From: an uncultured Acidobacteriota bacterium
GTDB lineage: Bacteria; Acidobacteriota; Vicinamibacteria; Vicinamibacterales; SCN-69-37
Direction: 5' to 3'
Length of the DNA: 64,000 nt
Assembly (NCBI GenBank): GCA_963730485.1
Contig: CAVSRY010000011.1
Span: 47,059-111,058, forward strand
The notes beneath the pieces were generated by a model. That model had not been told where the DNA came from and did not search any database. It saw nothing but the letters and a program-made list of their open reading frames with translations. Shown one piece after another: positions 3,750 through 41,534 of the stretch (position 1 is its first letter; every line of letters begins with the position of its first letter). The translations under genes were made by a program, and so were the position numbers.

Positions 3750-3883
3750 GGCTCAAGGCTTAGGGCTCAAGGCTCAGGGCCTGGCACGGCTCAGCTGTCG
3801 CGGCACTGGCCTGGGGCTGGCCCCAAGCCCTAAGCCGTGAGCCCTGAGCCCTCGGCTCGGCTCGGAGCCTCACGCCCGAGCCG
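3750..3883. repeat. heptad-periodic inverted array (GGCTYAR / YTRAGCC) in a divergent intergenic region
   Basis: Left arm ggctcaaggcttagggctcaaggctcaggg, spacer of about 36 nt, right arm ccccaagccctaagccgtgagccctgagccctcggctcgg. Confidence 0.7.
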
Positions 3884-5875: not shown

Positions 5876-6020
5876 TTGCGTATTTGTCACTGGTGATTGG
5901 CTATTGGTTATTGCATTGGTAATTGGTGATTCGTTATTGAGGATTCGAACCCCCGAACGTCAATAAGCCAATCACCAATCACCAATGCAATAGCCAATAA
6001 CCAATAACAAATAGCAAATG
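5876..6020. repeat. long AT-rich heptad-periodic hairpin (ATTGGTN / NACCAAT), arms about 60 nt
   Basis: attggct|attggtt|attgcat|tggtaat|tggtgat on the left, with caataagccaatcaccaatcaccaatgcaatagccaataaccaataac as its near reverse complement. Convergent junction. Confidence 0.85.
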
Positions 6021-7493: not shown

Positions 7494-7532
7494 GGCCCTA
7501 AGCCTTAAGCCCTAAGCCCCAAGCCCAGAGCC
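7494..7532. repeat. single-arm heptamer array (CCTAAGC-type) filling the whole gltA / M28 gap
   Basis: cctaagc|cttaagc|cctaagc|cccaagc|ccagagc. No inverted partner is visible. Confidence 0.7.
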
Positions 7533-9086: not shown

Positions 9087-9153
9087 GGGTCTTGGGTCTT
9101 GAGTCTTGGGTCTTGGCGGCTGAGCCCAAGCCGCAGGACCCAAGTCCCAAGCC
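9087..9153. repeat. heptad-periodic inverted array (GGGTCTT / CCCAAGN) directly after the phoU stop
   Basis: gggtctt|gggtctt|gagtctt|gggtctt, spacer cggctga, then gcccaag|ccgcagg|acccaag|tcccaag. Confidence 0.8.
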
Positions 9154-14786: not shown

Positions 14787-15809
14787 ATGCGAGGACGGAA
14801 GCTCGAACCGATGGGCCATGCTACCACGACGATCGCGGGCGGTTTGATCGCCGCACTGACGCGCCAGCACGATTCGCTCGCGCGCCGCTGGTCTGCCGCG
14901 CGTGCCGGCCACGTCAAGGGCGTGCATCGCGCGCGCGTGGCGTCGCGCCGCCTTCGCGAGGCCCTCGCGGTCATCGACGCGGCCGAGCCGAAGAGTCGCG
15001 CCGCGCGCCTCGCGCGTACCGTCAGGCGGATGACGCGAGCGCTGGGGCCGGTCCGCGAAATCGACGTCGCGCTGGTCGAGCTCGATCTCGCCGCCCGCCG
15101 GCACGGCTGGTCGCCCGAGCTCGCGGGAATCGTTCGCCGTCGGCTCGAGCGGGAGCGCGAGCGTCGCGCGAAGCGCATGGTCGCCAAGATTGCCAAACAG
15201 GATCGCGGCAGCGTTCGAGACGACATCCGCGAGCTGTCGAAGTGGATGACCGGTGCAGATGATCGATCCTCAGAGGCCGCACTGAGCGCCAGGATCGTGC
15301 GACGCGCCCGCGCAGTGCTGGCCGCGTCCGCCGCGGCGGGCACGATCTATGTGCCCAACCGGCTCCACGCGCTCCGCATCGCGATCAAGAAGCTGCGGTA
15401 CGCCATCGAGCTGCTGCCGCCGACGCCGGCGTTCGACGTGGCCGTCGCGCTGAAGTTGTTGAAGCGGGCGCAGCGTCGCTTCGGATCCCTTCAAGACATT
15501 CAGGTGCTCACCGCGGAAGTGCGGGCGATTGACACGGTGAAGCGGCGCCCAGCGGATCGTGCCGCGTTGTCTGCGGCGGCTGACGCCCTCGAGCGCGATT
15601 GCCGCGAGATCCACGCGAAGGCGCTCGCGCTCGTGCCGGATGTCGAGGCGTGCGCCCGGCTGATCCGGCGCGAGCTCGGTGTGCGCCGCCGGGGAAGCCG
15701 CCTCGCGATGGCCAAAGCAGAGCTCGACACGAAGGCCAGGGCTCTAAGGCTCAGGGCTCAGGGCTTGGGACTGATGCAGGCGCACGAGCGACCAACGTGC
15801 AGGCTCTAA
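14787..15809 (+). CDS. CHAD domain protein
   Basis: Helical, R-rich repeats (VHRARVASRRLREAL, LHALRIAIKKLRYAIELL). The last ~25 codons are translation of the left repeat arm, so the true C-terminus may be near 15735. Confidence 0.6.
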   Translation: MRGRKLEPMGHATTTIAGGLIAALTRQHDSLARRWSAARAGHVKGVHRARVASRRLREALAVIDAAEPKSRAARLARTVRRMTRALGPVREIDVALVELDLAARRHGWSPELAGIVRRRLERERERRAKRMVAKIAKQDRGSVRDDIRELSKWMTGADDRSSEAALSARIVRRARAVLAASAAAGTIYVPNRLHALRIAIKKLRYAIELLPPTPAFDVAVALKLLKRAQRRFGSLQDIQVLTAEVRAIDTVKRRPADRAALSAAADALERDCREIHAKALALVPDVEACARLIRRELGVRRRGSRLAMAKAELDTKARALRLRAQGLGLMQAHERPTCRL

Positions 15810-15860
15810 ACCCTAAGCCCTAAGCCCTAAGCCCTAAGCCCTAGCCGTGAGCCCTAAGCC
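15734..15860. repeat. heptad-periodic inverted array with a (CCCTAAG)n arm
   Basis: Left ggccagg|gctctaa|ggctcag|ggctcag|ggcttgg, 38-nt spacer, right ccctaag x4 |ccctagc|cgtgagc|cctaagc. Confidence 0.85.
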
Positions 15861-18845: not shown

Positions 18846-18935
18846 GGGTTCCCCGTTCCCGGTTCCACGTTCCCGGTTCTCGGGACCGCGAACGAAGAAC
18901 CTGGAACGGAGAACAGGGAACGCGGAACGGAGTCC
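18846..18935. repeat. heptad-periodic inverted array (NNGTTCC / NNGGAAC)
   Basis: gggttcc|ccgttcc|cggttcc|acgttcc|cggttct, spacer, then gaagaac|ctggaac|ggagaac|agggaac|gcggaac. Confidence 0.8.
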
Positions 18936-20043: not shown

Positions 20044-20058
20044 AGCTGGTGGATGGAT

Positions 20059-21197
20059 CTAGAGCGAGCGTGGGCGCATGCTGTGGACCGGTCGGGACCG
20101 GACGCCGAAGAGTCGCGCGCGCGCTCCACGCCGTCATGGCGGCAACCCACGCGAGGTTGCGCACCGCGTGCACGGGCACGAAGCACAGGCCCGCCGGATC
20201 GCGAAACAGGACGGCGGCCCACAGGCCGGCCGCGAACCGTTCGGCGATGAGTACCGCAGCCAGCGCGAGCGCCACGCTCGCGGGGACCACCCATGGCGTG
20301 CCCGCAACGGCGGCGGCGACCGCGATCGCGCCCGCGGCGACGGCAAGGGCCGTCACTGGCCCCTGCAGCATCATCGAGAGGCCCGACACATTGTCACCCG
20401 CGACGCGCTGCGGGTGCCTGCCAGCAGGTTGAGGCGGCCGTATCCAAACCCGTATTGCTGCCGCGCGTAGTCGACGACGCCCTCGCGCCAGTGGTGAACG
20501 CTCTCCGCGTCGTGGCAATACGCCAGTCGATATCCAGCGCCGACCAGGCGATAGCTGAGGTCGTTGTCGTAGCCGTAGCCGAGACCTTCGTCGAACAGCC
20601 CGACTTCGAGGAGCGCCGATCGCCTGTAGACACTGTTGCCTGTGCACACGTGATTCGTCGTGGACGCGAGACGCCGGTAGCGGAGCGCGAGATCCAGCGC
20701 CATCACGCGCGACCAGATGTCCTGAGGGGTCTGTCCCCGCTCACGAAGTGGGACTGATCGCCCGTCGAAGTGGGTGACCTGAGGGTCTGTCCCTGCTTAC
20801 GAAGTGGGACTGACCCCTCGTGGTCTGCCTCCGCACCTGGAACGTACCGACCCTGCGCGGCCGCGACCTGCGGGTCATCGAACTCCTGACCAACCGCTCG
20901 AGCCAAGTTGGTGAGAGCACGACGTCCTGATCGACTTGGGCGATCAGCGGATACGCGGCGGCGCGCACGCCCCGGTTGATGGCTGCGGCGGCTCCGCGCC
21001 GTCCCCATTGAGCACTCGCATGTGGCCGAGCGACTGGTGGCGCGAAAGGATGGCGGCCGAGTCATCGGTGCTGCCATCGTCGATCGCGATGATCTCGATC
21101 GGGCCCGGACCATGTCTGGCGCGCGAACCGCCGTCAGCACGCTGTCGAGCCAGCGCCCGCCGTTTCGGACCGGAATGACAAAACTGACGCCCATCAT
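20059..21197 (-). pseudogene. glycosyltransferase family 2 with C-terminal TM region, interrupted by a tandem palindromic element
   Basis: VSFVIPVRNGGRWL, then (other frame) IIAIDDGSTDDS, then VMALDLALRYRR..YDNDLSYRL, then TM segments. The element at 20721-20822 sits between the GRYVP and VMALD segments. Confidence 0.6.
20721..20822. repeat. two tandem copies of a ~48-nt REP/MITE-like palindromic element
   Basis: cctgaggggtctgtccccgctcacgaagtgggactgatcgcc and cctgagggtctgtccctgcttacgaagtgggactgacccctcgtgg. Same family as 33844-33938 in the opposite orientation. Confidence 0.8.
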
Positions 21198-31958: not shown

Positions 31959-32114
31959 CCTCGCGTGCCGACGTGGCGCTGGCTGTCGCGCGCGCGTGCT
32001 CCCCACGCGTCCGCGTCTACGGCCCTGGTGCGGTTTTCGACGTCTCTGGGTGCTCGCGGACGATCGGGACACCAGCGACCATTGCGAGTGAAGTGCTTTC
32101 GTTGGCGAAACGAT

Positions 32115-32215
32115 GGTCCGAGGGTCGCGAGGGTCCGAAGGTCCGAAGGTCCGGTCCAGGGTTCCAGGTCCTCGAACCCTCGGACCCTCGGACCCTCGGA
32201 CCCCTCGGACCCTCC
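32115..32215. repeat. inverted array with 8-nt unit (GGTCCGAR / YTCGGACC) inside imuB
   Basis: ggtccgag|ggtcgcgag|ggtccgaa|ggtccgaa|ggtccgg, spacer, then tcctcgaa|ccctcgga x3|cccctcgga. Confidence 0.85.
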
Positions 32216-32344
32216 CCGTGTCGCTGTTGCCCCGACCGTCACGATGGCCTGGCTGCTGGCTCATGCGCGTCCGGGCATGACGGTCGCGGACGCGGCGTTG
32301 TTATCGCGGCTGCCCGTGGGGTGGCTTGGGGCATTGAGTGATCT

Positions 32345-32440
32345 GAGAGTTCGAGGAGTTCGAAGGGGTCGAGGAGTTCGAAACGTTCAGGACACCCTCG
32401 ACCCTTCGAACTCGACCCTCGAACTCTCGACCCCTCGAAC
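32345..32440. repeat. inverted array with 8-9-nt unit (GAGGAGTTC / GAACTCGAC-type) inside imuB
   Basis: gagagttc|gaggagttc|gaaggggtc|gaggagttc|gaaacgttc, spacer aggaca, then ccctcgacccttcgaactcgaccctcgaactctcgacccctcgaac. Confidence 0.85.
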
Positions 32441-33086
32441 GAGATCGCCGAAGCCCTGGCGATCTTTGAACGCTGGGGGCTTCGCACGCTTGGTGATGTG
32501 GCGGCGCTTCCGCGCGGTGATGTTCTCGCGCGGTTGGGACCACTCGGCCGGCGTTTGCATCAAGCCGCGTGCGGAGAAGACGCGGCGCCGTTCGTGCCGA
32601 TGGACGAGACGCCGGGGTTCGTCGATCGCCTGGAGCTCGAGTGGCCGATCGAAGGACTCGAGCCACTCGCCTTCGTGCTGGCGCGATCGTGCGAGCGGTT
32701 GTCGATGGCGCTCCAGCGCGCCGATCGCGGTGCCGTCGCGGTCCGTACCCAATTGCGGCTCGTGACACGCGAGACGCACGAGCGGACGCTCAACCTGCCG
32801 GCGCCGATGGCCGACGCCCGGATCCTGCGAACGCTCATCCTGCTCGATCTCGAATCACATCCTCCGCCCGCGGCGATCGACATCGTCACGATCGAGCTCG
32901 ACGTCAGTCCCGGTCCGATCGTGCAGGGATCGTTGATTCTGCCGACGTTGCCAACGTCCGAGGAGCTCGCGACGCTCGTGGCGCGATTGACGGCGCTCGT
33001 GGGCGCTTCGCGCGTGGGGGCGCCGATCCTCGTCGATACCCACGATGCGCGGGCGATCGGGATGGAGACATTTGGCGTGCAACTCT

Positions 33087-33184
33087 GGGAGGGCAGAGGG
33101 CAAAGGGCAGAGGGCAAAGGAGAGGAAAAAGTCCGGACACTCTGGCCTCTGCCTTTGCCCTTTGCCCTCTGCCCTTTGCCCTCC
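33087..33184. repeat. heptad-periodic inverted array (CARAGGG / CCCTYTG) inside imuB
   Basis: gggaggg|cagaggg|caaaggg|cagaggg|caaagga, 20-nt spacer, then cctctgc|ctttgcc|ctttgcc|ctctgcc|ctttgcc. Confidence 0.9.
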
Positions 33185-33615: not shown

Positions 33616-33843
33616 AGCGTCTTTGTCCATGTACATCGAGCTCCACACTTCCTCGGCCTTCTCCTTTCTCGACGGCGCGTCGCTGCCGGGGACGCTCATC
33701 GAGCGTGCGGCCGAGCTGAACTATCCCGCGCTGGCGCTGCTCGATCGCGACGGGCTGTACGGTGCGCCGCAGTTCTATCGCGCCGCCAAAGCCGCCGGCA
33801 TCAAAGCGATTGTCGGTGCGGAACTGACGATTGGGGATCTGCG

Positions 33844-33938
33844 CCACGCGGGGTCAGTCCCAGCTCCGTAAGCCTCAAGCCCCACGCGACCCACGCGGGG
33901 TCAGTCCCACTGCGTGAGCGGGGACAGACCCCGCGTGG
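33844..33938. repeat. REP/MITE-like palindromic element (one partial plus one complete copy) inside dnaE2
   Basis: ccacgcggggtcagtccca at 33844. Complete copy ccacgcggggtcagtcccactgcgtgagcggggacagaccccgcgtgg at 33891-33938, with 12-bp perfect terminal inverted repeats. Confidence 0.85.
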
Positions 33939-35385
33939 CTGGACCCTGCCCGTGCTCGTCTCGTCGGCGGAGGGGTATCGCCAGCTCTGCCGGATCATCA
34001 CGCGCGCGAAACTCCGGTCGCCAAAGGGCGAGTCGCGCGTCACGCTCGACGATCTGGCAGGACAGACGAGCGGCCTCGTCGCGCTCGTTGGCCGCGAAGC
34101 GCTCCACGCCGAGCGTCACGGCGTCGGCGGACTGATCGATCGACTCGTGGGAACCTTCGGGCGGCAGCAGGTCTGGATCGAGCTGCAGCGTCACCTCGGG
34201 CGTGCCGATGCGCCGGAGCTCTCGTCGCTCATCGATCTCGGCGCCGCGTTTCGTGTGCCGCTCATGGCGTCCAACGGCGTCCGGTTTGCCGCTCCGGATG
34301 CGCGTCCGCTCTATGACGTGCTCACCAGTATCCGGCACAAGACGACGTTGAACAGGGCAGGCCGGTTGTTGTCGGCCAACGCCGAGCGTTATCTGAAGCC
34401 GCCGGAGCTCATGGCCCGCATGTTCGCCGACGTGCCGCAGGCGCTCGCCGGCACCGAGGCCCTTGCGGAGCGGCTCGAGTTCACGCTCGCCAATCTCGGC
34501 TACCGGTTTCCGGAGTATCCGGTCCCGGCGGGCGAGACCGAGTCGTCTTTCTTGCGACGGCTGACGCACGTCGGCGCGCGCGATCGCTATCGGCCGCTTC
34601 ACGACCGCGCCCGCGCGCAAATCGCGCGCGAGCTGGATCTCATCGAACGCCTCCAGCTCTCCGGCTACTTCCTCATCGTCTGGGACATCGTCAATTTCTG
34701 CCGGCAGCAGCGCATCCTGGTGCAGGGGCGCGGGTCGGCTGCCAACAGCGCCGTGTGCTACGCGCTTGGGATCACGGCCGTCGATCCCGTGGGCATGGGT
34801 CTGCTCTTCGAGCGGTTCCTGTCGGAAGAGCGCGGCGAGTGGCCGGACATCGACCTCGATCTGCCGAGCGGCGACCAGCGCGAGCGCGTCATTCAGTACA
34901 TGTACGAGCGCTACGGCACGCTGGGCTCGGCGATGACCGCCAACGTGATCACGTATCGGGGGCGCAGCGCGGCGCGCGAAGTCGGCAAGGTTCTGGAGCT
35001 TCCCGAGGCCGAGGTCGATCAGCTCGCGCGACTGATGAGCCAGTTCGAGTTCGTCGATCCCGAGGAAACGTTCGCGCGGAATCTCCGCGAGTCCGGCCTC
35101 GACCCGGACGATCCGCGTTACCGGCTCTTCGGGAAGTTGTGGCGCGAGGTCCAGGATCTGCCGCGGCATCTCGGCCAGCATTCAGGCGGCATGGTGGTGT
35201 GCCAGGGCCGGCTCGACGAGATCGTGCCGCTCGAGCCCGCGTCGATGCCCGGGCGTGTCGTCGTGCAGTGGGACAAGGACGATTGCGCGGACCTCGGCAT
35301 CATCAAGGTGGATCTGCTGGGGCTCGGCATGATGGCCGCGCTCGAGGACGCGATCGCGATCATCAATGCACCGTATGAGGACATG

Positions 35386-35428
35386 ACAACCGGGTGTCGT
35401 CACCTTCGAGCTCAGGACACCCGGTTTC
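35386..35428. repeat. small hairpin element, GAAACCGGGTGTC...GACACCCGGTTTC family, inside dnaE2
   Basis: aaccgggtgtc, 17-nt spacer, gacacccggtt (11-bp perfect inverted repeat). It coincides with a frame change. Confidence 0.75.
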
Positions 35429-36223
35429 TTCACCGATCGATCTCGCGCACTTACCCCCGGACGACCCCGCCGTCTACCGGATGCTGCAGTCGGCTGACAC
35501 GGTTGGCGTGTTCCAGGTGGAGTCGCGCGCGCAGATGGCGACGCTGCCGCGGCTCAAGCCAAAGTGTTTCTACGACCTCGTGGTCGAGGTGGCCATCATT
35601 CGCCCCGGGCCCATCGTGGGCAACATGGTGCATCCGTATCTCGCCCGGCGCCGTGGCGATCAGCCGGTGACCTACGCGCATCCGCTGCTCGAGCCGGTGC
35701 TCGCGCAGAACGCTGGGCGTGCCGTTGTTCCAGGAGCAGCTGCTGCGGATGGCGATGGTCGTCGCCGGGTTCTCGGGAGGCGAGGCCGAGGAACTGCGCC
35801 GGGCCATGGGCTTCAAGCGATCGGTGAAGCGAATGCAGCAGATCGAGCAGCGGCTGCGCGACGGCATGGCCCGCAACGGGATTCACGGCACGGCGGCCGA
35901 CGACATCGTGCGGTCGATCACGTCGTTCGCGTTGTATGGCTTTCCCGAGTCGCACGCCGCCAGCTTCGCGCTCATCGTCTACGCGAGCGCGTATCTGAAG
36001 GCGCACTACCCGGCGGCCTTCTACACGGCGCTCCTCAACAACCAGCCGATGGGGTTCTATCACCCGGCTACGTTGGTCAAGGACGCGCAGCGGCGCGGCG
36101 TCCGGTTCACGCCGGTGGACGTCCAGGTGTCGTCGTGGAACTGCCGCATCGAGGAGAACGGCGCGATTCGGCTCGGGCTTCGGATCGTGAAGGGATTGAG
36201 AGCTGACGCGGGACAGCATATTG

Positions 36224-36310
36224 AAAAGGCAGAAGGCAAAAGGCAAAAGGCAGAAGGAGAGGAAGAAACAGGGAAGAACGGGGAACGGGGAACGGGGAAC
36301 GGGGAACGGA
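36224..36310. repeat. single-arm heptamer array morphing from AAGGCAR to GGGAACG, inside dnaE2
   Basis: aaggcag|aaggcaa|aaggcaa|aaggcag|aaggaga|ggaagaa|acaggga|agaacgg|ggaacgg x4. It coincides with a frame change. Confidence 0.85.
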
Positions 36311-36483
36311 TGTGCGTTTCACGTCCTTCGATGATCTGGTCGCGCGTGCCGGGCTTCGACAGGACGAAGTTCGCGTGCTGGCCGAGTGTGGCGCGCTGGC
36401 GGCGTTCGGTGGGGATCGCCGGACGGCGCTCTGGCAAGCGGAGCGGGCCGGCCGCCCGGCCGGCCCACTGCTCGTCGATAGCG

Positions 36484-36529
36484 ATGAAACCGGCTGTCCT
36501 CACGCCGAAGGAACGACACCCGGTTTCAT
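36484..36529. repeat. second copy of the GAAACCGG-type small hairpin, inside dnaE2
   Basis: atgaaaccggctgtc, 16-nt spacer, gacacccggtttcat. It shares GACACCCGGTTTC with 35416-35428. Confidence 0.7.
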
Positions 36530-36530
36530 G

Positions 36531-36568
36531 CCCCAGGCCCCAAGTCCCAAGCCTCAAGCCCCAAGCCC
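36531..36568. repeat. single-arm heptamer array (CCCCAAG-type) read in frame within dnaE2
   Basis: ccccagg|ccccaag|tcccaag|cctcaag|ccccaag, translated as QAPSPKPQAPSP. Confidence 0.75.
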
Positions 36569-37005
36569 GCTTCCTCCCATGTCCCTGGCCGAGCGGGTGC
36601 AGTCGGACTACGACCGGACGGGGCTGACGATTGGGCCGCACCCGATGGCCATCGTCCGCGCGTCGCTGGCGACGCGCGGCATTCAGCGCGCCAGCGATCT
36701 CGCCCGCGGACGTCCAGGCCGGCGCGTCCGCGTGGCGGGATCGGTGATCACGCGCCAGCGGCCCGGTACCGCCAAGGGATTTGTGTTCCTGTCACTCGAA
36801 GACGAGACCGGCATCGCCAACGCGATCATCACGCCCGACGTGTTCGCCATGTACAAGCGGACGATCGTCGATGAGCCGTACTTGATCATCGAAGGCACCC
36901 TGCAGAACCAGGACGGGGCAGTTTCCGTCAAGGCCGATCGCGTCGATGTGCTCGATGGCGTCGGGCCGGAAGTCGAGTCGCACGACTTTCATTGAGGCTA
37001 CTCAT

Positions 37006-37074
37006 CGTTCCCCGTTCCCCGTTCCCCGTTGACTGGCCACGTTCCACCGTTCCTCGTTCCCGTTCACTCGTTCC
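37006..37074. repeat. single-arm heptamer array (CGTTCCC-type) just after the dnaE2 stop
   Basis: cgttccc|cgttccc|cgttccc|cgttgac...cgttcca|ccgttcc|tcgttcc. Reverse-complement family of the 36270-36310 array about 700 bp upstream. Confidence 0.75.
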
Positions 37075-40305: not shown

Positions 40306-40408
40306 GCGAACGAGGAACGAGGAACGGGGAACGAGGAACGGGGAACGGGGAACGGGGAACGATAGAATCGCTCTCTCAATGCCCGTTCCTCGTTCCTCTC
40401 TCGTTCGC
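40306..40408. repeat. asymmetric heptad-periodic inverted array (RGGAACG / CGTTCCY)
   Basis: Eight left units gcgaacg|aggaacg|aggaacg|gggaacg|aggaacg|gggaacg x3, 19-nt spacer, then a short right arm cccgttcctcgttcctctctcgttcgc. Confidence 0.85.
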
Positions 40409-40790: not shown

Positions 40791-41458
40791 CGCCGGTCGC
40801 TCACGTTCTCTACCTGCACGGGTTCGCGTCCTCGCCGGCGTCGTCGAAGGCGCGGCGGTTCGAGGAGGAGCTGGCGGTGCACGGCGTCGGATTCTCCTGT
40901 CCGGATTTCAACCAGCCGGCGTTCGAGACGCTCACCGTGACGCGGATGCTCGCGGACACGCGCCGGGCCCTCGAAGCCGCACGCGGCCGGCCTGTTGCGG
41001 TCATCGGTTCCAGCCTGGGCGCGTTCGTCGCCGTGCACGCGGCCGAGGCGGCATGGGGACGTGACATCGACCGGCTGATTCTGCTCGCCCCGGCGCTCGA
41101 TTTCGGCGGCAACCGTCTGCGGCAACTGGGTGACCGCGGCCTGGACGAGTGGCGCACGTCCGGCCGTCTCGAGGTCTTTCACTACGGCGACAATCTCACG
41201 CGGCACGTCGGGTTCGAGCTCTACGAAGACGCAGCGCGCTTCGACGCGTTCCGTGTGCAGCGAGTCCTTCCCACGCTCGTCTACCAGGGACGGCAGGACG
41301 AATCCGTCAGCGCCGACATGGTCGCCGGCTGGGCTGAGGAGCGGAGGCACGTGACACTCCGTCTTGTTGACGATGGACACCAGCTCACGGCTTCGATGGA
41401 CGAGATCTGGAAGGAGGCGGAGGCGTTTCTGGGCTCCGCGCGACAAGTTCAGAAGTGA
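40754..41458 (+). CDS. alpha/beta hydrolase (YqiA-like esterase family)
   Basis: VLYLHGFASSPASSKA and GSSLGAF (GxSxG), in a 234-aa ORF. Confidence 0.65.
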   Translation: MPLPAGLPDDAVTPVAHVLYLHGFASSPASSKARRFEEELAVHGVGFSCPDFNQPAFETLTVTRMLADTRRALEAARGRPVAVIGSSLGAFVAVHAAEAAWGRDIDRLILLAPALDFGGNRLRQLGDRGLDEWRTSGRLEVFHYGDNLTRHVGFELYEDAARFDAFRVQRVLPTLVYQGRQDESVSADMVAGWAEERRHVTLRLVDDGHQLTASMDEIWKEAEAFLGSARQVQK

Positions 41459-41534
41459 GAAGCCAGAAGTGAGAAGAAACTGACGCGGCAGGCGCCCAGC
41501 AGCTTCTCACTTCTGGCTTCTCACTTCTAACTTG
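41447..41534. repeat. near-perfect heptad-periodic hairpin (GAAGTGA / TCACTTC) at a convergent junction
   Basis: gttcaga|agtgaga|agccaga|agtgaga|agaaac, 22-nt spacer, then cttctcacttctggcttctcacttctaac. The left arm overlaps the hydrolase stop. Confidence 0.9.

Follow-up and report, generated by a model that had tools for sequence, protein, structure and literature searches.

Can a short palindromic DNA repeat settle inside unrelated bacterial genes and be translated as part of their products? The question is raised by a 64,000-nucleotide (nt) stretch of a contig from an uncultured Acidobacteriota bacterium (CAVSRY010000011.1, positions 47,059 to 111,058; hereafter the window, meaning this whole stretch), in which copies of a 48-nt palindromic repeat lie within the genes of a family 2 glycosyltransferase (GT2) and of the error-prone DNA polymerase DnaE2. 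[quoted passage not shown] We conclude with considerable confidence that the element belongs to a lineage-specific, REP-like family of short stem-loop repeats found in Vicinamibacterales from soil, that about one fifth of its sites are intragenic and read through in frame, and that the broken frames seen in the window are most likely assembly indels.

Results

A hairpin repeat in GT2 and dnaE2

The exact 48-mer of the element, CCACGCGGGGTCTGTCCCCGCTCACGCAGTGGGACTGACCCCGCGTGG, is found at positions 33891-33938 on the minus strand, with no occurrence expected in shuffled sequence. Its 36-nt core, GGGGTCTGTCCCCGCTCACGMAGTGGGACTGACCCC, is matched in the window at 33897-33932 (no mismatch to the searched pattern), 20726-20761 (two mismatches) and 20782-20817 (three), and matches of this quality are likewise not expected in shuffled sequence. 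An nhmmer profile built from 42 copies gives exactly four matches in the 64 kb, one of them partial, all within GT2 or dnaE2 (Table 1). Pattern and profile searches thus confirm the palindromic repeat that had been noted in these two genes, and the locations given for it are upheld. The GT2 site lies between GRYVP and VMALDLALRY, i.e., between the strand ending in ..AAAQGRY and the helix DIWSRVMALDLALRY, and that of dnaE2 falls within the PHP domain, flanked by AELTIG and LPVLVSS.

The element consists of a 36-nt invariant core and a covarying flank of about 6 nt on each side, 48 nt in total, which fold into a stem of 17 bp, interrupted by a conserved T·T mismatch, and a loop of 12 nt. Folded as single-stranded DNA, the perfect dnaE2 copy has a predicted energy of -23.5 kcal/mol (z = -6.6); its stem comprises 12 perfect pairs on the outer side, the T·T mismatch and five pairs on the inner side. 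The two GT2 copies are degenerate (about 83-88% identity to the consensus) and their hairpins are weak, with z values of -1.1 and -3.7. On the coding (minus) strand of GT2, the first of them reads ...SVPLRERGQTPQ/DIW. We consider the stretch between the two copies to be what is left of a third unit, since the closest relative (locus L001) has three units there, the third one in full. At the position of the partial dnaE2 copy, a full copy is present in another related locus, L013.

The G+C content of the window is 61-69%. A scan of the window against Rfam 15 gave no match at or above the gathering score, and scanning the surroundings of the GT2 site for promoters and terminators yielded none, with no T-tract following the hairpin. 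Readings of the element as a CRISPR, an attC site or an intrinsic terminator were dropped, as it comes without spacers, GTTRRRY-type ends or a U-tract, respectively.

A dispersed family with mostly intergenic copies

Two exact-pattern scans were made, one over one genome per species and the other over JGI metagenome contigs. The first returned 17 loci in four metagenome-assembled genomes (MAGs; CAWBZK01, CAVTYZ01, CAVVWN01 and CAWKMQ01) titled uncultured Acidobacteriota or Vicinamibacterales, with isolate names starting with MFD, and the second found the element in 18 separate contigs. The strict pattern matched only eight loci per MAG, and the element is probably dispersed at roughly 10-20 sites per genome. 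A scan of viral contigs for the element gave no matches. Since MFD denotes the Microflora Danica project, which relied on deep long-read Nanopore sequencing (PMC12313526), the restriction of all four genome matches to its MAGs could hint at a sequencing or assembly artefact of Nanopore MAGs. However, the element recurs in the 18 JGI contigs, and in JGI and ENA gene calls of other projects, at orthologous positions and with sequence variation, and this reading is already refuted, its probability being close to nil.

After orthologous loci were collapsed, about 29 independent sites were obtained, whose context was assigned from spanning open reading frames (ORFs), G+C content at third codon positions (GC3) and Pfam; the GC3 phase profile around the copies was only partly informative, and an ORF-based GC3 filter was used together with Pfam. 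About 21 sites are intergenic, two overlap gene ends and six are internal to genes, namely those of GT2, DnaE2, two Ser/Thr kinases, an HI0933-like flavoprotein and a zf-HC2 anti-sigma factor. The earlier statement that all four copies in the window are intragenic therefore stands, but does not extend to the family, and the concern that the element might be absent elsewhere is removed by the copies found between genes and inside four further genes. Intergenic copies typically lie between co-directional genes, often 0-20 nt past a stop codon, and one begins at most 10 nt from the 3' end of a tRNA-Arg gene. The gene-end overlaps affect the C-terminus of DinB_2 proteins (L011 and P0241) and the 5' end of an ABC ATPase gene (L025). 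In the DinB_2 protein P0241, two element copies make up the C-terminal tail; it was also the one weak match among 411 candidates in a protein search with four concatenated translated element frames, a query whose length was insufficient for HMMER statistics.

In all clusters, the copies follow one another head-to-tail as direct arrays with a period of 38-56 nt. The period is 39 nt in GT2 as opposed to 38, 47, 48 or 49 nt in intergenic arrays, and only the coding arrays are held to multiples of three (3n). Copy number varies at orthologous intergenic sites, one of which has one, two and three copies in L033, L003 and L026, and another one and three in L008 and L009. No consistent direct repeat that could represent a target-site duplication was seen beside the copies, whose flanks are inverted, not direct. 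The copy alignment contains no GTAG or CGTC tag, and the conserved flanks CCACG-N and N'-CGTGG belong to the stem.

At 3462-3487 of L018, a truncated copy (left arm and loop) is fused directly to a GGCTCRAG heptamer array, and the orthologous sites in L013 and L027 hold the full hairpin. The comparison shows that the L018 copy decayed by deletion at the heptamer-repeat junction. Intergenic element copies in related loci often have a GGCTYAR array directly adjoining their 3' side.

Intragenic copies are open and in frame in relatives

Outside the window, every internal copy examined, in MAG loci and in independent metagenome contigs, is stop-free in the frame of its host and has a net length of 3n. 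Three frames are used among the internal copies, in both orientations; by reading the core, four of its six frames were found to be without a stop codon, in agreement with the frames left open in related loci. Spanning ORFs are open in L001, L016, L013, L002, L010, L003, L017, L028 and L033. Pfam confirms the GT2, PHP, Pkinase, HI0933_like and zf-HC2 domains, and the matches of the first four align across the inserts. The peptides added are GSVPLR(E/K)(R/Q)GQTP, GQSHFVSGDRP or GSVPA(H/Y)EVGLTP, so that the host proteins gain a loop of 12-16 amino acids; if the inserts are translated, the peptides YVPGAEADHEGSVPLR and GQTPRDIWSR are expected across the insert junction.

In L001, GT2 reads ...AAAQGRYVPGAEADH-EGSVPLRKQGQTPR-ESVPLRKQGQTPR-ESVPLGEQGQTP-HGQAPKDIWSRVMALDLALRY, with three 39-nt units in frame, and in L016 it has one unit, also in frame. 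Among the orthologues drawn by protein search from independent JGI and ENA metagenomes, five (P0001-P0004 and P0006), which are 77-91% identical to the query, have 1, 4, 1, 2 and about 1.5 tandem units GSVPLR(K/E)(Q/R)GQTP, each of 13 amino acids, at precisely this position. P0007 and more than 30 further orthologues (at most 69% identity) have a short, insert-free loop (YVPAPQARDIF). At the DNA level, the hairpin of element-bearing orthologues is intact in the first unit and decayed in later units, and units two and three of P0002 are without it. In the more distant orthologue P0005 (L040; 66% identity), the loop after GQYVPG contains a different GC-rich hairpin, GGCCTCGGCGCTCAGGCGAGGCC, read SRRPRRSGEAG; this hairpin occupies the same GT2 loop as the element in closer relatives.

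The DnaE2 of L013 reads AELTIGDPDAT-RGQSHSVSGDRPHATHAGSVPLRERGQTP-RGWTLPVLVSS within a 909-amino-acid ORF, in which the two units are in two different frames and have a net length of 3n. In the closest orthologue, P0121 (L018), only a 14-nt remnant, CGGGGACAGACCCC, is left, and it is read GDRPR. Across Acidobacteriota orthologues, this site (AELTI...LPVLV) is hypervariable, its loop ranging from 2 to more than 60 amino acids. In P0122-P0180 it often holds peptides resembling translated simple repeats (GLGARGWGLGK, EVRSKNSEVRTR, PQAS...), and these sequences suggest that the PHP-domain loop of DnaE2 is a general insertion hotspot for repeats. In the remaining hosts, the kinase insert stands in the context HPxIxxLHDxG-SVPAHEVGLTPS-...FLVME, the flavoprotein insert reads GQSHVVGRDRP, and that of the anti-sigma factor lies in a linker ahead of the membrane helix.

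The hypervariability of the DnaE2 loop would be expected if the segments were ordinary fast-evolving linkers or low-complexity loops with no discrete repeat, an objection that the first-pass annotation had itself raised. It is half true of DnaE2, whose loop is indeed hypervariable yet occupied by the repeat in the window lineage, and not true of GT2, whose loop is short and insert-free in more than 30 orthologues of greater distance. Moreover, the same 36-nt sequence, with at most four mismatches, recurs in several genomes, at about 21 sites between genes and within six unrelated genes. The objection is thus already refuted, and we give it a very small residual probability.

A second alternative is that the element remains untranslated, either by ribosome bypassing or by removal from the mRNA. 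The translational-bypass inserts of T4 gene 60 and of the mitochondria of the yeast Magnusiomyces ('byps') are short GC-rich hairpins that are untranslated and whose frame is unconstrained, and the element is likewise a GC-rich hairpin inside genes, with window copies that are out of frame. Unlike these inserts, however, it preserves frame and openness outside the window, which makes translation the simpler reading. A constraint on the frame and length of coding copies, including the 39-nt period of the GT2 arrays against the other periods of intergenic ones, is expected only if they are translated. No matching take-off or landing codons were seen, nor any Rfam match, and bypassing or removal is in our view highly improbable. 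The suggestion of in-frame insertion, as in Rickettsia, is instead supported, given that the element at these GT2 and DnaE2 positions is open and in frame both in the nearest relatives and in metagenome contigs of independent origin.

Location of the inserts in the host proteins

An AlphaFold model of the GT2 P0001, computed with 60 homologues, has a mean predicted local distance difference test score of 93.9; insert residues 121-140 score 55-61 and the residues around them 94-99. In this model, the insert is a coil between the strand 111-118 and the helix 142-156. The 39-amino-acid segment of DnaE2 aligns opposite residues 73-83 of Escherichia coli Pol III alpha. Compared with PknB, the kinase insert falls in an N-lobe loop between the strand ending in ..YDTGE and that starting with ..YIVMEY, and the flavoprotein insert corresponds to an 11-residue gap against 3v76. 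From the model and these alignments to solved structures, the internal inserts are predicted to occupy surface loops or linkers and to leave the fold intact.

Frame breaks in the window

In the window itself, the frames do differ on the two sides of the insert, as had been remarked. The window is syntenic with contig CAWBZK010000010.1, and is 94.3% identical to L001 over 8 kb at the GT2 site and 92.8% identical to L013 over 7.7 kb at the dnaE2 site. The comparison with L001 reveals 23 single-base indels in about 8 kb, i.e., about one per 350 nt, of which only seven are in a homopolymer context, and many unrelated window genes are split across several frames. The general indel problem that had prevented a verdict on the frames is therefore real. 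The addition of one G to the G-run at 20782 (AGGGTCTG becoming GGGGTCTG) brings GT2 back into frame across the element and over more than 170 residues past it. In dnaE2, one base added near 33830-33850 would restore the frame, as reasoned from the printed frames, not computed. Single-base indels of the assembly are the most likely cause of the broken frames at the two sites. The window sequence resembles a Nanopore-type MAG, and the quality of the contig should be treated as low for frame-based inference.

Alternatively, GT2 and dnaE2 could be real pseudogenes in the window genome, inactivated by decay of the repeat arrays through indels in G/C runs and partial deletions. Both sites are out of frame with copies more degenerate than in the relatives, and three indels fall within about 40 nt at the partial dnaE2 copy, which would fit such decay. 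However, the indel density and the many unrelated split genes would, if real, turn most genes into pseudogenes, and a single homopolymer base suffices to restore GT2. The relatives themselves derive from Nanopore MAGs (PMC12313526), and L001 and L018 carry stray frameshifts too. We consider true pseudogenization unlikely.

Possible constraint on the hairpin

Across 40 distinct copies, pairing reaches 85% or more at 11 of the 12 positions in the core stem; the remaining one is the T·T mismatch (alignment columns 15 and 38; positions 33917 and 33904 in the perfect copy of the window), which is invariant in 40 of 40 and repaired to a pair in none. This invariance may simply reflect recent common ancestry. 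HUH transposases bind imperfect hairpins, and by analogy the mismatch could serve strand-specific recognition. Covariation is seen at the pair that adjoins the core (AU 10, CG 10, UA 6), with a covariation score of 0.136 versus 0.081±0.010 after shuffling; none of 500 shuffles scored as high, and the value is well above all slid controls. Flank complementarity is 2.08 versus 0.70±0.21. In the first unit of six GT2 orthologues, the arms are 97% identical, whereas the loop and the flanking coding sequence are both 87% identical, and all eight third-codon positions in the arms are identical, compared with 0.69-0.70 in the rest of the gene. This small aligned sample suggests that the nucleotide sequence is constrained or homogenised, a pattern that gene conversion would equally produce.

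Such a pattern, together with the invariant mismatch and the covarying outer pair, would be expected if intragenic hairpins were kept by selection on the nucleic acid, as an mRNA structure that influences translation or decay or as a DNA site for a hairpin-binding protein, rather than as tolerated passengers. Single comparisons, however, reach only P of about 0.02-0.1, and gene conversion among copies or recent common ancestry gives the same pattern. The loss of the hairpin in units two and three of P0002, the weak folding of the GT2 copies in the window, and the use of three frames in unrelated host genes also argue against such selection, which we hold to be improbable. A bolder form of this idea is that the hairpin is a functional nucleic-acid signal kept even in coding sequence, either as a recognition site of an HUH-type or other enzyme or as a structure for mRNA translation or decay, and that changes of one to four times 13 amino acids in GT2 and the filling of the DnaE2 PHP loop amount to lineage-specific remodelling of the enzymes; we regard it as improbable.

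Proposed history of the element

In the scenario that we favour, an REP-like family read through in frame, the element would have spread, now or in the past, as a non-autonomous unit recognised through its hairpin, or by recombination. Insertions that break genes would have been purged. Intragenic copies would be read through by the ribosome as an extra loop peptide, and this is possible because the unit length is 3n (36, 39 or 48 nt), four of the six core frames are stop-free, and the surviving insertions lie in loops or linkers. Slippage or unequal exchange would generate tandem units, with changes inside genes persisting only if they are 3n. Intergenic copies probably act as 3' hairpins of transcripts, as proposed for REPs.

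Several points weigh against this scenario. Among the loci compared, neither a mobilising enzyme nor a target-site duplication nor a fresh insertion was found, for which reason we infer mobility from dispersal only. For an REP family, the copy number is low, head-to-tail arrays are unusual, and the GTAG or CGTC tag is missing. The greater conservation of the GT2 stem arms than of the surrounding coding sequence is unexpected for a purely neutral passenger. Finally, the attribution of the frame breaks in the window to errors, which we consider most likely, is drawn from sequence comparison with relatives.

Other repeats in the window

About 20 short tandem arrays with a 7-nt period (e.g., GGCTYAR, TGGGTCT, GAACGGG, CAATAAC and AAAAGGC) are found in the window, mostly between genes. 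Several are inverted pairs able to form long hairpins (5891-6017, 33089-33183 and 41450-41528). Two of the arrays, 36224-36309 and 36530-36568, lie inside dnaE2, downstream of the catalytic core, and read KAEGKRQKAEG...GERGTGNGER and PQAPSPKPQAPSP; the dnaE2 ORF of L013 ends in the first of them. Counted together with the element site, they indicate that the dnaE2 of the window lineage has at least three separate repeat-derived inserts. Arrays with a period of 8-9 nt (CGAAGGTC, CCTCGGAC, GAGTTCGAG and ACCCTCG) occupy 32111-32452, about 1.2-1.5 kb upstream of the dnaE2 start.

Table 1 Copies of the element, host genes and heptamer arrays in the window.
Feature	Positions	Strand	Remarks
Element copy 1, GT2 site	20722..20766	+	Degenerate; right arm GACTGATCGC in place of GACTGACCCC
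Remnant of middle unit, GT2 site	20764..20780	+	cgtcgaagtgggtgacc; loop and right arm, from alignment of window, L001 and L016
Element copy, GT2 site	20781..20823	+	Starts with AGGGTCTG (run of three G); GGGG in all other copies
Partial degenerate copy, dnaE2	33844..33873	-	Right arm intact; left arm replaced by ggggcttgaggctt
Complete perfect copy, dnaE2	33890..33938	-	Reads HAGSVPLRERGQTPRG in the dnaE2 frame
Host gene, GT2 glycosyltransferase	20058..21197	-	At least three frame pieces in the window; 3' end approximate
Host gene, dnaE2 (error-prone DNA polymerase)	33623..36995	+	At least five frame pieces in the window
Heptamer arrays	2879-2945, 3750-3780, 5891-6017, 7495-7526, 9087-9116, 15732-15860, 18847-18922		
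Heptamer arrays (continued)	33089-33183, 36224-36309, 36530-36568, 37006-37074, 40308-40362, 41450-41533		

Discussion

Our results extend the phenomenon of RPEs and intragenic REPs to the Vicinamibacterales, soil Acidobacteriota that entered this analysis as metagenome-assembled genomes alone, and indicate that in this order, too, selfish or structural DNA hairpins become parts of proteins. In the literature searched, no paper connects Vicinamibacteria with repeats of this sort. GT2 provides an unusually clean case, in which the same loop carries 0, 1, 2, 3 or 4 units among related genomes. For annotators, the G4/C4 runs and the tandem structure of the element are spots where long-read assemblies gain or lose bases, and spurious frameshifts are thus to be expected in GT2, dnaE2 and similar genes unless the repeat is recognised.

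According to two summaries, RPEs (Ogata et al. 2000) are palindromic repeats found in frame inside functional genes, translated and tolerated in loops, as well as between genes; they are about 105-146 bp long, AT-rich and confined to an obligate intracellular alphaproteobacterium (PMC3733652, PMC3184786). The element resembles them in that its internal copies are in frame and stop-free in loops or linkers of bona fide genes, with further copies between genes. It differs by its length of 48 nt, its G+C content of at least 70%, its free-living soil hosts and its head-to-tail arrays of variable copy number. It falls outside RPE-1 to RPE-8 (about 100-150 bp, another host), from which it is set apart by size and host only.

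REPs located wholly inside ORFs have been reported in several species, including Opitutus terrae and Thauera (Di Nocera et al. 2013; PMC3733652). These intragenic REPs encode about 12-30 amino acids (20-30 as dimers), many of them in replication and repair genes, explicitly including DnaE2, and REPs in general lie mostly between co-directional or convergent genes, near the 3' end of the upstream ORF (PMC3733652). The element shares with REPs (about 20-40 nt) the form of a short, GC-rich, imperfect palindrome with a stable stem-loop; in the sites collected here, it is situated mostly between genes, often close behind the upstream one, and in a minority of cases inside ORFs, DnaE2 among them. 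REPs are also associated with RAYT, an IS200/IS605-like Y1 transposase flanked by the repeats. In contrast to REPs, it has no terminal GTAG or CGTC tag and a low copy number, its stem of 17 bp and loop of 12 nt exceed the 8-9 bp and 4-5 nt of CGTC families (PMC3733652), and it clusters head-to-tail, whereas REP clusters (BIME/REPIN) are head-to-head or tail-to-tail.

With MITEs, the element has in common that it is small, non-coding and dispersed, has inverted-repeat ends, and is occasionally fused in frame to genes. However, MITEs span 70-300 bp or more, with terminal inverted repeats of 15-30 bp around an internal region and target-site duplications, whereas the element is a single 48-nt hairpin at which no duplication was seen; no search was made for a parent insertion sequence. 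Of the initial label 'REP/MITE-like', the first half is thus retained and the second, in view of the size and the lack of a visible duplication, is not. Mycobacterial interspersed repetitive units and variable-number tandem repeats (MIRU/VNTR) consist of 40-50-nt units that form short arrays, head-to-tail, with copy numbers differing between related genomes; MIRUs lie between the genes of operons and lack a strongly palindromic sequence. The element is similar in its head-to-tail arrays and variable copy number, but is primarily a dispersed single hairpin. With intragenic REPs, including those in DnaE2, and in-frame RPEs already published (PMC3733652, PMC3184786), our verdict is that the element represents a new REP/RPE-like family and not a new kind of element.

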